64,000 nt of DNA from Eledone cirrhosa. Its lineage: Eukaryota. Where the stretch lies: positions 42,842,001 to 42,906,000 of the forward strand of contig OZ024746.1 of NCBI GenBank assembly GCA_964016885.1, given 5' to 3'. Both the position numbers and the translations under genes were made by a program. Below the pieces are notes generated by a model. It worked only from the letters and a program-made list of their open reading frames with translations. It ran no database searches and was not told the DNA's origin. Shown piece after piece: positions 16,728 through 49,694 of the stretch; the first letter of the stretch is position 1, and the number at the start of each line of letters is the position of its first letter.

Positions 16728-17990
16728 CATGTGAGAAGGAGAGTCTGCGGTGCTGAGACCAAGGAGATCACTAATCATGTGAGTAGTCGATACATGGGGA
16801 GATGTAGAGTGTGGGTATAAAGATGTGTAAAATCATGACCATAGTGCTAAGTGGTTTTGGCTGGTGTGTTCAGCAAGCCTTTTCAAAGGCTTGCTGAACA
16901 GAAAATTCTGCTTCAGTTCAACCTACCATGATACAAATTGACACAAAACTGATGATAATATCTACATTGCAAAATATTTTCTACAGCTTCCTACTTGAAA
17001 CTACCTAGACAGGAAATTGTGGTTAGAAAATATCATTTGAATGCATTTATATTAACAATGATGTACTAATTGAAACCATAAGTTTATACATAGATTAAGT
17101 CACAGATCACATATAGTGGCAATAGTTTAGACAACAGAACTGAGGATATATAGAGTAAAGGGTATCAACGATGGAGGCAGGAAGGCTAGAATGCTAAAAG
17201 AGTAGAGAATGAAGTGATAAGGAAGGTAGTTGAATAAACAGTCATTTGTTATGTAAAATGCCAGTAAAATGATATAAATTATGAAACAACTGACTATTTA
17301 ATGATGTATTTCTTATATTAAATTATAGGGACTTTAGATAGATTTGATCATGAGAAAATGAATAAATATAAATAAAAACAAACAAAAATCAAATAATCTT
17401 ATCTCCAAACCTTAATTTGTTAGTTTTTGAGACATCACATACATATATGATGAAGTCAACCAACAGCTTACTATAAACAGTTTTTAATTGTATTTCTCTT
17501 TTTCGAGGATGTAGAAAGTTAAATTCAGTTTTACTGATCATCAGAAACAATGTACCAATTGTGGCTAGTATTTGGATCAATATAAAAACAAAACTGTAAA
17601 ACCTGTGCCCCATTTCTGTCATTCATATCACAAAACATTGCAATCTTCTGTCTTCACATTTCATATAGTGACAGGTATTCATGTGAATAACAGAAATAAT
17701 GAAAATGATGATGATGATGTTGGCAGTAGTGAGTATGATGATGTTTTTATTCAATCACAAAATACTTACCTGTTTTTTAATATGTGAAAGAAAGACTAGA
17801 ATGACTAGCTCTAATAATTAAAAAATATAACACTAGTTTGATCTGGAGTATGTATGAACAAGATGAAATATATTTTCAATGTATATCAGAAATAAAAATA
17901 AAGTTATTTTATTTATTTTTTAGTGGATAGTGTAATCAATAAATTACACATGCTTACTTTCAATTATTTGAGTGTCCTAAAATAATATAG

Positions 17991-18299: not shown

Positions 18300-19564
18300 T
18301 AATTAATAAATTACACATGCTTACTTTCAATTATTTGGGTGACCTAAAAATAACATAGAAAATATCTGTCTGAGTAAATAATTCTTATATTACTGTGTAT
18401 TTCATATCATATATAAAACCTGAACCATTAATAGCTAAGAAGCTATTGTTCATCAAGAAAAATCTAAAAAAGCTGGATTTTTCTGGATTTTGTTCTTTTT
18501 TTAATTAAATTCTAATGTATTATTTGCTCATGTTTTGAATGTCAGTGATTGAATGATGAAGGAACTCATAGAAAATGGGCTATCAAAGCTGTATATATTG
18601 ATGAGATGCATAGAGAAAAAAGAACATAAGAATATATATTAATTGTATAAGAATTTTATAATAAAATAGATAGCCTATATAAGATTTATACAAATAAAAA
18701 TAAGATTGACAGCATCGCACATCTTTTGTTATGTTAATTAATACTGGCTTTTAAATATTTGTATTGGTTTTTTTTTCATTGGCAACTGATCAATAGTGGA
18801 GAAGGTTAGTTAATCAAATTAACCACTGTATATTACTGGTTCTTATTTTATCAATCATTATGTCATTCATCAGTACTTATTTTCTACTGATTCTAAAAGA
18901 AAGAGTCAATCTTGGAAGGGTTAAGAACTACCTAGAAAGATGTAATACTACAAAAAATTCAATCTGATATACTACCATGCTGGCTCACCTACTGTTCATA
19001 TAAAAATGAATATTGAGTTTTAATATTTGAATAAGGCTAGAAATTGTGGTGAAAGCTACAAATAAACACCTTAATACTTCACTAGTATTATGTTTTAAGG
19101 ATCCTGGAATATTAAAAGGCTATGTCAACCTCAATATTTGAACTCAGAATATAAGGGGCTGAACAAAATAACACAAAACATTTTGTCTTATGCTCTAACG
19201 AGTCTGTTAAACCACCAATATGAACATTTTGTACGTAATAGAACATACTATGAATGAGTCAATACACGAGGGATATTAGTGTGTATAGTATTTGTAACAA
19301 ATAGTATAAATTGCAATGAGAATTAGAAATCTGACCTGGGCAGTCACGTACTAAGGGTAGACTGGTTAGGGGTGATTACATCTGCTTGTATTCCCCATCT
19401 TTGGCTTTGTTTCTATAGCTAGATATCCTGCCAAATGCCAACTACTTTTCAGTATATATACACATATAGATACACACACGCAGATAAACACACACACACA
19501 CACACAGATACACATATATATATACGATATTAACAAATGGAAACTATATTTATAAAACCATATC

Positions 19565-19629
19565 TATTTTATTATACATATTTCAAGGATACCATGTTAA
19601 ATTATGGTATGCTTTCATCAGACAAAATA
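19565..19629 (-). ncRNA. Type I hammerhead ribozyme motif (mirror copy)
   Basis: Exact reverse complement of 19784-19848. Confidence 0.7.
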
Positions 19630-19783
19630 CAATATATACCAGTTTTATAAATAAATTTTAACATACCCTTTCAAAATGCAACCGTTAGTTTTGGAAGACA
19701 TCAGGATATTGATGTCTTCCAAAACTAACGGTTGCATTTTGAAAGGGTATGTTAAAATTTATTTATAAAACTGGTATATATTG

Positions 19784-19848
19784 TATTTTGTCTGATGAAA
19801 GCATACCATAATTTAACATGGTATCCTTGAAATATGTATAATAAAATA
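19784..19848 (+). ncRNA. Type I hammerhead ribozyme motif, Penelope-like
   Basis: Stem I tattttgt/ataaaata; core CTGATGA 19792-19798; stem II aagcataccat/atggtatcctt with one C-C mismatch; GAAA 19829-19832; short self-complementary stem III ATATGTAT; AUA triplet with predicted cut after 19840. Confidence 0.7.
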
Positions 19849-19996
19849 GATATGGTTTTATAAATATAGTTTCCATTTGTTAATATCGTATATTTACTTC
19901 AAATACTTATCGAGTGCTTTATATCAGTTATAAAAATATTTGCTTGTTGTATCCCAACAATTTAAATAGAACTTTTGCATATATATATATATATAT

Positions 19997-20112
19997 ATAG
20001 GAAAAAGTATGACCCCGACGGCAGAGCTCAAGCCGTTTCGACGGCTATTTCAGTCCAGAAATAGCTGTCGAAATGGCTTGAGCTCTGCCGTCGGGGTCAT
20101 ACTTTTTCCTAT
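19997..20112. repeat. Inverted repeat, 55-bp arms, 6-nt loop
   Basis: 19997-20051 pairs with 20058-20112, 2 mismatches; loop agtcca; lies between (TA)n tracts. Confidence 0.95.
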
Positions 20113-21133
20113 TTCCCACTCTACTACCCTAAGTATTGAGTAATCTGGTGCATTATAGTCCATCTGGTTCCTTACCACAATTCCTTTGTTTTATATATAT
20201 ATATATATTGGTCTTTTGTCATTGAATATTAATGCTCTGCTACCTGAACTGTCCTCAACAAGAACTTTAACTGTTGATGACTTAGTTGTCCGTTTTAAAC
20301 TCCTGCTGAAATGAGGATTGCACTGTGCATAGAGCTTCTCTCACCTTATCAAAGATAATAGTAAAGTACTTTAGTACAAACACATATATTATATATATAT
20401 ATACATATATACATATGTGTGTGTGTGTCGAAGTGTGTATGTATACACACATTCACAAATATAACTATATCTCTCTCTTTCTCTGTCTCTATATATTATA
20501 ATATATATATATCTGTATGTGCGTGTATATATATATCTATATCTACACACACATAGATTATCAAGTTTTTGGGAAACCATTATTTGTAACAGATACTAAT
20601 GAACATTTTATTGACTTGTCAGTAAATCACTGGAGTGTAGGGAATTTTTACTGGCGTGTTGGAATACACTACTTATAATTGATTTGTGGTTAAAGGTCTG
20701 AAATGTAGTAAAATTAAGTACTTTTTGTAGGAAATATTATACATAAACCAAAATTACTTAAGCATTGACTTAGATTCATTTTCAAAATAAATACATCTAT
20801 GATGTTTGCAATGGAAGAACACGAAATTTAAGAAGTTGGTAGAATAAAGAAACTGAAGCGTTATGGTTAACTGTGAACTTTAGGATCATGTTAATGATAA
20901 GATCATTTGGCATCACTAATATCAAATTATTCACTAAGCTAGACATTTTATCTTGAATTACTCATACATAAATATGGAACATTTAGATGTTTAAAAGGAT
21001 TTTATAGCTTAAGAGAAAAAAATTATTACTGAAGGGCTTTTGGGTGGAGATAATAAAAAAAAGGACATCAATCTTATTGTTAACTTATTAATTTTTCATT
21101 GTATATCAATATTCCATTATAGTTACAAACTTA

Positions 21134-27133: not shown

Positions 27134-27263
27134 ATATTTAATATAGAAATGGCTTCTACAGGACCAGAACTGTTTCATTTGAAGGGAATCATCAGGAAAG
27201 CCTGACAATTTCCTTCAAATGAAACAGTTCTAGTCCTTTAGAAGCCATTTCTATATTAAATAT
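27134..27263. repeat. Inverted repeat, 63-bp arms, 4-nt loop, degenerate hammerhead core
   Basis: 27134-27196 pairs with 27201-27263, 5 mismatches; loop aaag; flanked by CA/TA tracts. Confidence 0.93.
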
Positions 27264-29242: not shown

Positions 29243-30290
29243 TTGACAGTTGGAATTTGGAACACCACAACTCTTACAGGTAAGGAGCAGTTACTAGTGG
29301 AGGAGGCTATATGCTACTGACTAGATATAGTCAGGGTTTCCTCTACAAAGTTCTGTGGCTCTGATACTGTAAATTTGGATGGAGAATGAAAACTCCACTA
29401 TTCACGTTTGGAGCCAGAAATTACTGCACAGGTAGGAGTGGAAATACTCACAAGCCCCTGGCTGTTGGAATGTGTTCTAGACTGGATTCCATTAGGAGGG
29501 AGGATTTGTCTCTTGAAGCTTAGGCTGAAAGATAAGTCTCTGTGAGTAGTGCAAGTATATACACCAAACAAGGAATCTGAATACAGGTCACAGCAGCACT
29601 AGATGTAGTTAAGACTGAGTCATATATCCTGATGGGAGACTTCAATGCTCATGTTGACACTGACGTCCTCACATGGAAAGAAGTGATGGGAAGGAATGGC
29701 AACATCATCATTTTCATTTCATTTTACGTCCGCTTTTTCCCTGCTTGCAAGGGTGGGACAGGAACTGATTCTGGCTTGATTTCTACAGCTGGATGCCCTT
29801 CCTAACACCAACCTCATTTACAGTGAGTGCTGGGTGCTTTTTTGCTGTGGCACCTACACGACCACTTTGCAGTGGAATGATAGGGACCCCAGTCCCTATC
29901 ATCTCATTTCTACAGCTGAGTAACCTGAGCAATGTGAAATAAAGTGTCTTGCTCAAGGAAACAACACATCATCCAGTCTGAGAATTGAACTCACAATTTT
30001 TCGATTGCAAGGCCAATGCTCTAACCACTAAGCCATGTGCCTCCAACCTTGATCTAAATACAAATGGAGTGGCCTTACTAGACTTCTGTTCTAGAAATGG
30101 ACTCTCTATTATCAACACCTTCTTCCAGTACAGAGACATCTATAATATACATGGTATAAGGGGAATCAGAGACAGAGATCAATAATTGATTTTGTTATTG
30201 TCTCTGATCTCTTTGATTCTGTGCTGGATGTTCGTGTTAAGAGAGGCGCTGAGCTGTCAACTGATCACCATCTATTTATCTACAACTTGA
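29243..30290 (+). pseudogene. Expander/Rex3-like RTE LINE, APE endonuclease domain, interrupted by a SINE
   Basis: LTVGIWNTTTLTGKEQLLVEE..VVQVYTPN..ILMGDFNAHV..GRNG [SINE] NLDLNTNGVALLDFCSRNGLSIINTFFQ..IDFVIV..LSTDHH, with stops. Confidence 0.9.
29704..30044 (-). mobile_element. tRNA-derived SINE family B with RTE-type tail
   Basis: Head ggaggcacatggcttagtggttagagc..gagttcaattc on minus; (GAT)n tail; short caac duplication at 29700-29703 and 30044-30047; highly similar to 48008-48350. Confidence 0.92.
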
Positions 30291-33636: not shown

Positions 33637-34857
33637 ATCATCATCATCATCATCTTCGTTTAACGTCCATTTTCCACGCTAGCATGGGTTAGACGGGAGT
33701 TGTCCCACTTGAGGCAAGTCTGGTTGAGTGACTGTGTCTCGCTCATATAGGACTATCTGGCAGGTTTTCTACGGCTGGATGCCCTTCCTAACACCAACCA
33801 CATTTACAGTGTGGAACTGGGAACTTTTTACCATATTACCTACACGGCCACATTACAGCGTGAACTGTGTGTGTTTTTTGTCGTGACACCTACATGATCT
33901 CGATCTCATTTGCTCGTGCTGTTGGTGGGAGTGGGAGGATAGGGTAGGGGTAGTGGATTGGGGTGTATATTTGGTTAAGAGGTGCCTACTGACTGTAGGT
34001 TTTGCTTTGTACATAGGCAAGGCGGGTCTTCTGTATTACTGCATAATGCCAAAGATCTTGGTCCAGAGACATTGTCTTAGAGAGATGTAAGTGTGTGAGG
34101 TCGGAATTTATCAGATCGTCCCAGGTTTTTCTGGGTCTACCTACTCTAACTATCATCAATTTTGATCGCCCTGCACTTTTTTATACAGCTGTCGTCTTTC
34201 ATGCGCATCACGTGACCATACCAACGTAGTCTTCTCTCAAGTAAACAGCATCTGATCCCTCTTATTCCTAATTTCTCACTTAGTTCATTTATGCTTTGCC
34301 GTTCATGTATATTACTATTACACATCCAACGGAGCATGCATGCTTCGTTCCTTTCCAGTCAGTGCAGGTCCTCTGCACGTAATGCCCATGTCTCACTGCC
34401 ATGTAGCATTGCTGTTCATATACAAGCATCATACAATCTGCCTTTCATTTTTAGAGAGAAACCTTTTGTGGCCAACAGCGGTATAAGCTCTCTGAACTTT
34501 TTCCATCCCGTTCTGACTCTGGCTTCTGTACTTTCAGAACACCCTCCACCACTGCTGATTTCGTCACCCAGGTAACGGAAAGTGTCTACTATTTCTATAG
34601 AACCATCTGGGCAATAGAAGGATATAGTATGATTTGAACACTTGCTACTTATTGCACCTGAGCATTGGCCACATATAAAGTCTACGTTCTTAGATAGTTT
34701 ACCTGTGATCTCACTACATCTTTTATGTACCCATACTTTGCATTTGGGACATAAAATGGAATTTATGCCTACTCCTTTCCAACACACTGAGCATGGCCAT
34801 TTCCCTGAGGGCACCTGTGCCCTATTTTCCTTTCTACAAACTAGAACTTTAGTCTTT
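33637..34857 (-). mobile_element. 5'-truncated RTE-clade LINE (ORF 3' part, 3'UTR, (GAT)n tail)
   Basis: ORFs 34416-34814 (PHD-like Cys motif, FRYLGDEISSGGG) and 34146-34337 (RRLRWYGHVMR); GRPRKTWDD; tail aacccatgctagcgtggaaaatggacgttaaacg(GAT)n. Confidence 0.93.
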
Positions 34858-34882
34858 ATATATATACCCCATTTTTCATATA

Positions 34883-35665
34883 TATATTCTCTACTAGATA
34901 TTTTGTCCTAATCTCATTCATTCTCAGCCCCACACTCATCGACAGAGTTCCCACCCCCTGCATCAAATCCTCTGCCTCCTTCACTGTGTTTGTCACAAAA
35001 CTATGTCGTCGGCAAATTCAGCATCCGATATCTTTTTGGCCTTAACTCTCCTGCTCTGAGCCGGTGTTACAGTAAAGCCAGAGAAGATTACTAATGTAGG
35101 CGAGAAGCCGCTAGAATTGGTTGAGGACTTCCTGTATTTGGGAGCAAAGATTGGGAATATGGAAGATGATGTGGTCGGAGGAAGAGTAAAGCCTAGGCAG
35201 CGTGCCACAGCTTGAGATCGGTGTGCAAGTCGGACCTTCATAAAGACCTGAAGATCCGCCTCTTCGTTGCTATAGTGGAGTTTGTGCTGCTGTATGGGTC
35301 TGAGACTTGGACACTGACCAAGAAACTCACTCAGATGGTGGATGGGTGCTACACGAGAATGCTGAGGATGGCTCTTAACATTAATCAGTATACACTGAGG
35401 ATGAAGAACTCAGAGCTGTACGGGAGCCTCCCAAAAGTCAGCTCAAAAGTGACAGAGGAGACTGAGGTTAGCTGGACATGCTCACCGACATCCAGAGTTG
35501 ACACTGCACTCAGTTCTCCTGTGGGAGCCCCTGCATGGACACACTAGAAGAGGAAGACTGAAGTTAACATATGTTGATGCCCAAAGGACAGACACTCATC
35601 TGTTGGAGACACAGGACATGGCAGCAATAATGAGGGACAGAGACCGCTGGAGAGAACTCGATATG
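34883..35665 (+). mobile_element. RTE-superfamily LINE fragment with 5' inversion and 14-bp TSD
   Basis: Minus strand ~34883-35082 encodes DAEFADDIVL..GLRMNEIRTKY; plus strand ~35083-35665 encodes LVEDFLYLGA..LLYGSETWTLTK..GRLKLTYVD..DRDRWRE; ccatttttcatata at 34869-34882 and 35666-35679. Confidence 0.9.
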
Positions 35666-48007: not shown

Positions 48008-48350
48008 ATCATCATCATCATCATTTCATTTTACGTCCACTTTTCCCTGCTTGCAAGGGTGGGACGGGAACTGATTCTGGCTTGATTTCTACAGCTGGAT
48101 GCCCTTCCTAACACCAACCTCATTTACAGTGAGTGCTGGGTGCTTTTTTGCTGTGGCACCTCCACGACCACTTTGCAGTGGAATGATAGGGACCCAGTCC
48201 CTATCATCTCATTTCTACAGCTGAGTAAACTGGAACAATGTGAAATAAAGTGCCCTGCTCAAGGAAACAACACATCGTCCGGTCTGAGAATTGAACTCAC
48301 AACCTTTAGATTGCAAGGCCAAAGCTCTAACCACTAAGCCATGTGCTTCC
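48008..48350 (-). mobile_element. tRNA-derived SINE family B
   Basis: Highly similar to 29704-30044, including the internal hairpin tgatagggac-cca-gtccctatca. Confidence 0.92.
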
Positions 48351-49630
48351 ATTCTATATATATATTCATACTGAAAAAAAAAGATAAAGTCTAAAATATA
48401 AACCTTTTAGATAATCCTAGGTTCTCCTAAAGATTTTAAATATTCAGAGGTCAAGCTAACATAATGTAACCTTAAGCAAATTCTTATGAAGTAAATTGCT
48501 CGATTTAGAATTCATTTTCATACATTATCTCTGCAAGATAACATTTTCACTAGGCTTATAATTTTTAAACAATTTTGCTTTTTTTCCTAAGTGGCCTTCC
48601 ATGTTATTGTTTACTTTGATGTCATATAATTATAGTCAGAGATACCACCAATGAAGCCTGCAATGAAACAAAAATTGAAATTCCAGCAAAAAAATAAAGG
48701 GGAAATGCTTAAAATAACTATAAGTAAAAATGTCAGGTCAAATAAAATTTGTTTGGTGATAATCATTTCATGAGTGAATTATAGAAATTGGGTAAAAACT
48801 GATGAAATATTTATTTGTAAGAAAGAATAAATAATTACTAGGCAAGGTTATAATATAGATTTATTTTCATTTAATGTCTTGTGTAAATGAACTGAGATTT
48901 GATTAAATAGATGTAATTTATTACTGACTCTTCTCATTTTTCTTTTGTACACACACTCTCTATGGCTTTATATATGTATATATACAATGTTTTCGCATAT
49001 ATGTGTATGAGCACATGAATGATGTATGCATTGTTGAATGGTTAAGACGTTGACATCACAGTCTTGAGATCCTAGATTTGATCAAGCTATCCCATACCTG
49101 GTGCAAGACATGGGTCGGTTCCATTCATTTTGAGCGAAGTTAATTTTTAGTAAAGTCAGTTTGAGTGAAGATATTTTGATTGAAACATTAAGAGTGAATG
49201 TTAATTTCAGTGAAGATTAATTTTAAGCAAAATATATATACTAGCGTATATTTGGCATTTTAAATATTTTTTTTATTTACCCGTTGTGAAGGTGTAATTA
49301 TTTGTATAAAAATATTTGTAGATTTCCAGCATATTTTTATTTTTATCAACTACGTTCAAAGTGTCTTTAAAAAAACAGTTTGAGGTTTGCTCAAACTGAC
49401 ACTGCTTAATAGGCATTGCTCAAAATGCACATAATTTTAACTTTTCTCAAATGACTGGACATGTTTGAGTCATCTGGAGCCTTGTATGTAAAATTAGATA
49501 TAGAAAATTTGAGGGAAAGACTAAAGCTAAAAGTAAAACAAAAAGTAAAACAAAATATTTATAACATGGATGATATGATTTTAGTAGTCCTTGATTTGGT
49601 TTACTGGAGAATCAATATCTGTTTCAATGA

Positions 49631-49694
49631 ACTAAGTAGTATCATTGCTACCAGAGAACTTGGACATTCTCTGGTAGCAATGATACTACTTAGT
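49631..49694. repeat. Perfect 28-bp hairpin, 8-nt loop
   Basis: actaagtagtatcattgctaccagagaa-cttggaca-ttctctggtagcaatgatactacttagt. Confidence 0.95.

Follow-up and report, generated by a model that had tools for sequence, protein, structure and literature searches.

The perfect palindrome at positions 19520-19893 of the analysed window, a stretch of 64,000 nucleotides from Eledone cirrhosa (contig OZ024746.1), belongs to a short stump of a young Penelope-like element (PLE), in which two truncated hammerhead-bearing ends lie tail-to-tail in a (TA)n tract. The stump was probably built during insertion from two cDNAs primed on both ends of one break. Beyond this locus, we lean slightly towards the general reading that PLEs integrate by obligatory double target-primed reverse transcription, each break end using a different fixed site on the RNA.

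A perfect palindrome within an asymmetric insert

As the initial annotation had described, two 184-bp arms, 19520-19703 and 19710-19893, are exact reverse complements (184/184 bp) around a 6-nt loop, GGATAT. That annotation took 19520-19893 as the unit; the palindrome is present, but the unit is larger, since a tail on the right arm had been missed. The right arm extends by 86 nt to 19979, so the whole insert of 460 bp (19520-19979) is asymmetric. The left arm (minus strand) is a 5'-truncated copy of the pLTR end, finishing at a tail-less terminus (site A) and abutting (AT)n, and the right arm (plus strand) is a second 5'-truncated pLTR copy, followed on the same strand by the tail at 19894-19979, which ends at site B, and by the (TA)n target tract at 19980-19999. 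The left flank consists of (AC)n and then an (AT)n run shorter than the (TA)n on the right side, and no target duplication is readable. At the apex (19704-19711), the left arm runs on through the 6-nt loop as it does in the element, where these bases stand at -83 to -88 counted from the core C; the arms are joined by a 2-nt microhomology (TG, 19710-19711). Transcription from either strand had been expected to give the same RNA; this holds for the identical arms, whereas the plus and minus strands of the palindrome differ at 4 loop bases.

That the palindrome is a fold-back artefact of assembly is next to impossible, even though its arms are perfectly identical and the whole stretch is not spanned by any single assembled read piece. 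Support from reads, on which the initial annotation had made the palindrome depend, was found: a 66-nt short-read contig (run X1, possibly the assembly's own sample) crosses the apex at 19674-19739 with 0 differences, which argues against an assembly fold-back, although as a short-read contig it supports the apex and does not cover the whole locus in one piece. Its depth over the apex was near single-copy (17.9 vs 12.6 in the unique flank), and the 28-nt apex sequence occurs only once genome-wide. Moreover, the left and right flanks differ, and the same build with diverged arms recurs at dozens of loci.

A hammerhead fold on each strand

Each strand carries a complete type I hammerhead, in line with the earlier reading, with core, stems and GAAA in place: a minimal copy on the plus strand at 19784-19848 and its mirror copy on the minus strand at 19565-19629 (predicted cut 3' of 19573). 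In the plus copy the core CUGAUGA (19792-19798) is accompanied by GAAA and the triplet AUA, which agrees with the predicted cut after 19840 as placed previously. Stem II comprises 10 bp, arranged 3+7 around a C-C mismatch, and stem I 8 bp including one G-U. Stem III is 8 nt long and self-complementary, the palindromic stem III by which the motif had been recognised as a Penelope-type hammerhead. A monomer cannot close this stem without a 2-4 nt loop, its predicted self-dimer energy is only -2.2 kcal/mol, and its pairs are invariant and so give no covariation signal.

Covariation was evaluated in 25 diverged copies from this genome, namely the window copy and 24 others, taken from the 35 most diverged among 76 distinct sequences after removal of non-hammerhead matches, deletion variants and near-duplicates. 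In this set 94.5% of cells pair, compared with 35-58% in slid controls. Two-sided, compensatory changes were seen at 8/10 pairs of stem II, a count of the kind that kinship inflates, while stem I was 99% paired with one-sided changes only, and the CUGANGA...GAAA...NUH core is present and nearly invariant. The hammerhead structure is clearly maintained at the level of the family, and its conservation is a property of the family and not of the window locus. Stem II is closed by A-U instead of the usual G10.1-C11.1 (G-U or G-C in 8/25 relatives), its register being fixed by covariation. The C-C mismatch (19802/19827) is invariant in 25/25 diverged hammerheads while the surrounding pairs covary, and a tertiary or protein contact at this point is possible.

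A hammerhead model search, suggested in the initial annotation as a check, lent no support: no Rfam hammerhead model matched, either at gathering or among 40 hits at E<=10. The Rfam microRNA-precursor matches were all below gathering and were dismissed as reflecting hairpin shape only. As a monomer, the ribozyme region did not fold more stably than shuffled sequences (z 0.29 and -0.70). The motif resembles the metazoan minimal or dimeric type I pLTR hammerheads, as far as described in the sections of PMC4209133 consulted, in its intact core, long stem II and palindromic stem III, and differs from them in the A-U closing stem II, the 8-bp stem I, the C-C mismatch and the absence of the extra base that usually follows position 9 there (between 9 and 10.1). 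The same sections report that minimal PLE hammerheads are inactive alone and weak as dimers, and already note dual motifs on opposite strands, 100-700 bp apart.

A Penelope-like parent element

Copy searches in the 3.0-Gb genome gave 1,536 candidate matches to the arm, the best at 98-100% identity, which bears out the recent origin proposed earlier. Exact copies numbered 488 for the 50-nt core and 5,212 for the 30-nt 3' end, against 0 for controls. The copies have two fixed ends, both followed by (TA)n: site A (window 19893) and, 86 nt beyond it, site B (19979). Of the 101 exact-core arms, 63 stop at A and the other 38 at B. Because the copies are single or tail-to-tail, a non-LTR retrozyme, which has head-to-tail tandem hammerhead units, was rejected.

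Long copies (L037/L173 and L038/L174) consist of a pLTR and tail, a 742-aa ORF whose start codon lies about 48 nt past site B, a long 3' UTR and a second pLTR. The ribozyme lies in sense orientation relative to this ORF; an antisense reading drawn from L031 alone was discarded, as that copy is truncated and its long 3' UTR is inverted. The protein, which in L173 stands between two pLTRs, contains a reverse transcriptase (YRDD) and, at the C terminus, a GIY-YIG endonuclease motif (NVVY..YVG). The same kind of hairpin directly precedes the intact ORF in L173, so the 460 bp in the window correspond to that 5' structure without the body. The features of endonuclease-bearing (EN+) PLEs found here are the single RT + GIY-YIG ORF, the inverted 5'-truncated copy and the one-sided tail.

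A motif scan of the protein revealed the Hydra-clade marks DKT, the CxCX5C linker, CxxC and CxH, with no GxKF and no CX2-5CxxC. These, together with the C-terminal GIY-YIG-like endonuclease, the hammerhead and the (TA)n target, are also the attributes given for the Hydra clade in section 11 of PMC8557442, the part of that review used here. The element differs from the clade in having RWR (residue 37) for RWK and in its length, about 4.5 kb in L173 against the usual <3 kb, owing to the long 3' UTR. On its motifs, its (TA)n target and the presence of the hammerhead, we assign it provisionally to the Hydra clade, a likeness by motifs and not by tree. The Pfam match of the ORF was weak (RVT_1, E=0.008, on a fragment), the whole-protein Pfam search returned nothing relevant and the PDB search nothing diagnostic; ORF homologues numbered 13,670.

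An Asn-rich stretch between the RT and the linker (L037:1169-3394, residues ~440-480) recalls the N-rich inserts of Adineta PLEs mentioned in the consulted part of PMC3846280. Beside a copy of this family (family 1), L031:1090-2063 holds a fragment of a further diverged Hydra-like endonuclease ORF, and PLE families in this genome are often nested in one another's (TA)n tracts.

Inverted arms pair by their 3' termini

Adjacent inverted pairs consist without exception (40/40) of one A-ending and one B-ending arm, which would have a probability of ~1e-13 if the ends were independent. In a stricter per-arm test 48/52 were A+B, and in the other 4/52 one piece reaches neither end; for 23/75 short arms, no partner in inverted orientation lay within 420 nt. 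A second sample, selected by the 3' end only, gave 25/27 A+B pairs, one of which (L225) is also among the 40; 5'-end mapping in this sample is blurred by subfamily divergence. Of its two non-A+B cases, L241 is a pair of A+B hairpins doubled around (TA)n, and in L236 the script misread an A end. In 9/40 pairs the B arm is tail-only and has no base in common with the A arm, so neither arm is a copy of its partner; this favours two cDNAs primed from both break ends over a single one folding back. At L241 and L185/L186, inverted duplications of ~1-1.7 kb copy whole stumps with their flanks around (TA)n; we take them to be secondary rearrangements or assembly folds.

Alleles were compared between arms in 22 short pairs, with 4 long pairs left out. 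Non-majority alleles common to both arms numbered 35, and 21/32 one-arm differences were singletons. The two arms of a locus share one source lineage, as they carry the same subfamily alleles; the recurrent alleles among the one-arm differences (11/32) mean that some pairs may derive from two templates. The arms were identical in 8/22 pairs, the mean arm-to-arm difference was 0.9%, and the probability of 0 differences in 184 bp is 0.18. Arm homogenisation, offered earlier as one explanation of the perfect match, is therefore not needed. Tail-to-tail pairs within ~1 kb numbered 27 among the matches listed (first 100 3' ends), and extrapolation from the listed matches yields roughly 1,400 hairpins from this family genome-wide.

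A common 5' boundary and a second family

The 5' ends of the arms pile up at one place: 33/72 fall at -80..-89 from the core and 1/39 at -90..-99, while elsewhere 42 ends occur in 898 at-risk arm-bins (0.047 per 10 nt; p=5e-21 for the pile-up). The base at -89 is an A that follows a pyrimidine. Of the 100 matches listed (of 113), 31 carry a non-templated G in place of the base before -89, compared with 3/31 at other truncations (p=0.02). A G derived from the cap is a signature known from L1. Here the G might faintly hint at cap copying, and microhomology could also give it. Judged from the genomic DNA, the pile-up at -80..-89 is likely to represent the start of the element RNA, at about -89. 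Family 1 has no clear TATA box at -30, which counts against such a start; a start at -89 is consistent with the internal TATA-less promoter reported for Penelope in the portion of PMC2377424 consulted. Ends at the ribozyme cut site were not significantly enriched (4/88, p=0.10), so the templates appear to have been mostly uncut.

A stump of a second Hydra-like family occupies 19997-20191 (plus strand) in the same (TA)n tract and has the same build as family 1, with an inverted arm, an arm, a ~80-nt tail and (TA)n; the hairpin proper spans 19997-20112 and its own tail runs to ~20191. This stump starts inside loop II of its family's hammerhead and holds the 3' half only. The family's parent is Hydra-like, with a protein 38% identical to that of family 1, and its core is a U3-A8 variant found in 1,257 copies. 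Its long pairs were A+B in 6/6 cases (one read by eye), and its short copies start sharply at TTAGTC, inside loop II; in some subfamilies a TATA-like word stands 29 nt upstream of that point. RNAs beginning inside loop II would be missing the ribozyme's 5' half. No CUGANGA core recurs across the family immediately upstream of this start (4 scattered matches). The 5' boundary thus lies 81 nt upstream of stem I in family 1 and inside loop II in the neighbour family; because its place relative to the ribozyme differs between the two, it does not track ribozyme geometry. This comparison of two families suggests that the boundary is set by the promoter, not by the ribozyme.

Proposed origin of the stump

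If the stump arose from two cDNAs at one break, the GIY-YIG endonuclease would cut both (TA)n strands, and each 3' end would prime reverse transcription inside uncleaved RNA just upstream of the ORF, one at A and one at B. At the 5'-most pLTR both cDNAs would run off at or near the capped RNA start, ~89 nt upstream of the core, which would account for the arm length of ~190 nt. The cDNA ends would then be joined via 0-4 nt of microhomology (here TG) or a few filler bases, with repair filling in the rest. The hammerhead would be a passenger in these steps; in the RNA of the parent, its predicted cleavage requires a dimer or assistance from protein.

In L1 twin priming, both target ends prime on the element RNA and the cDNAs join by microhomology, and the outcome is an inversion of non-overlapping parts at a variable internal site. 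Two-end priming and microhomology joining would be the same here, whereas two fixed sites would lead to an inverted duplication.

Closer parallels exist among PLEs. In the parts of PMC11167929 available to us, a PLE protein cuts and extends both strands in vitro, two internal start sites bound the tail, the RNA template is unprocessed, and the Anolis PLE ribozyme is active only with protein. Anolis Poseidon PAc therefore shares with the present element the two internal RT starts bounding the tail, cutting and extension of both strands, the AT-rich target and the uncleaved template; it belongs to another clade, its tail is 30-40 nt as against 86, and its starts lie inside the ORF instead of upstream. 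Those parts of the work do not link the two start sites to inverted insertions. Insertions of EN+ PLEs (PMC8557442 Fig. 2; PMC3846280) show, in the sections consulted, the same inverted truncated 5' copy, one-sided tail, junction palindrome and microsatellite target, and differ in their 30-40 nt tail and in that the insert here consists of two pLTR ends only. The inverted-pLTR and one-sided-tail architecture and opposite-strand hammerhead pairs are already published. The same sections attribute the inversion to self-priming or to resolution by the endonuclease and do not invoke two priming sites, and section 15 of PMC8557442 names the origin of PLE inverted repeats and tails as open. A literature search with few subscription journals in its coverage found no statement of the two-site priming model, and the portion seen of a bioRxiv retrozyme paper (10.64898/2026.07.22.740005) contained nothing bearing on inversion.

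Self-priming, in which one cDNA or RNA of the same element folds back and copies itself into the mirror arm, was proposed for Adineta PLE palindromes in the part of PMC3846280 consulted. It would suit the subfamily alleles common to both arms, and the window apex can be read as a 2-bp fold-back with a 6-nt loop. However, it cannot yield tail-only arms that share nothing with their partner and is refuted at those 9 of 40 loci, nor does it predict the strict A+B pairing. At the window locus, moreover, it is the A cDNA strand that contains the loop; had this strand folded back, it would have copied the left flank and not the tail carried by the other arm. We consider self-priming quite improbable. 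Still harder to maintain is a MITE-like unit moving as a fixed palindrome: many copies are indeed palindromic and similar in length, but the apex varies from locus to locus and that of the window is unique, which refutes such a unit, and the asymmetric ends and a parent that is an RT element also speak against it.

Two-end priming might also hold with another cause for the pile-up at -80..-89, namely a polymerase stop or an RNA processing end in place of a capped start. A local hairpin at about -76 to -46 could halt the polymerase, and ATAT at -88 offers microhomology to (AT)n. Against this, the cliff lies past the far side of that hairpin, the boundary shifts from 81 nt upstream of stem I in family 1 to inside loop II in family 2, it falls on a pyrimidine-A step in both families, some family 2 subfamilies have the TATA-like word 29 nt upstream, and the ribozyme cut site shows no clear excess of ends (4/88, p=0.10). 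A stop or processing end thus seems unlikely to us, and priming of two cDNAs that run off at the RNA start is the reading we prefer.

The family offers a countable rule, with one arm per start site and 5' ends at a fixed point. This A+B rule agrees with the pair of start sites observed in vitro, counters the published self-priming idea and makes the mechanism testable. If double priming is obligatory, one rule would cover the tail, the inverted pLTRs and the large number of solo hammerhead stumps. Animal genomes would then also receive from PLEs thousands of near-perfect hairpins of 100-400 bp, and these could supply RNA editing and the silencing of the element itself by small RNAs.

Possible roles of the hairpin RNA

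In a transcript across both arms, the predicted duplex has -287 kcal/mol vs -5 to -10 for the ribozyme fold, so the antisense arm could sequester the ribozyme in read-through RNA, as the initial annotation had envisaged. Its further view of the locus as a special self-silenced ribozyme gains no support from the family, in which such hairpins are a routine product (the 27 tail-to-tail pairs among the first 100 matches listed). The element's own promoter, if it fired at the apex, would read outward and give the sense arm only. Read differences at the locus stem from other copies, in runs that were DNA or unclassified, and carry no information on editing.

A functional self-silenced ribozyme or dsRNA source, kept perfect by selection or homogenisation, would be in keeping with a duplex predicted to bury both ribozymes in read-through RNA, yet we hold it to be highly improbable: besides the routine occurrence of such hairpins, identical arms are common and compatible with youth alone, no host exon or element ORF was recognised near the hairpin, and the conservation of structure belongs to the family and not to the locus. 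A collective dsRNA role of the family hairpins is possible, while a role for the window locus is unlikely, and we regard it as an ordinary transposon stump. Where hammerheads or microRNA-like hairpins are called in genomes of this kind, they often represent insertion scars.

Other features of the window

A third hairpin at 27134-27263, with ~55-bp arms and 3-5 mismatches, follows an (AC)n(AT)n run and contains on its minus strand a CUGAUGA...GAAAC hammerhead-like motif; similar sequence flanks L025, and the hairpin probably represents a third PLE family. Two near-identical repeats at 29735-30062 and 48041-48368 each include a tRNA-like segment (Rfam tRNA, gathering) and are likely a tRNA-derived SINE. 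Reading frames at 34416-35547 resemble non-LTR retrotransposon fragments, as judged by eye. Further perfect hairpins are located at 49631-49694 (28-bp arms) and 16867-16900 (16-bp arms).
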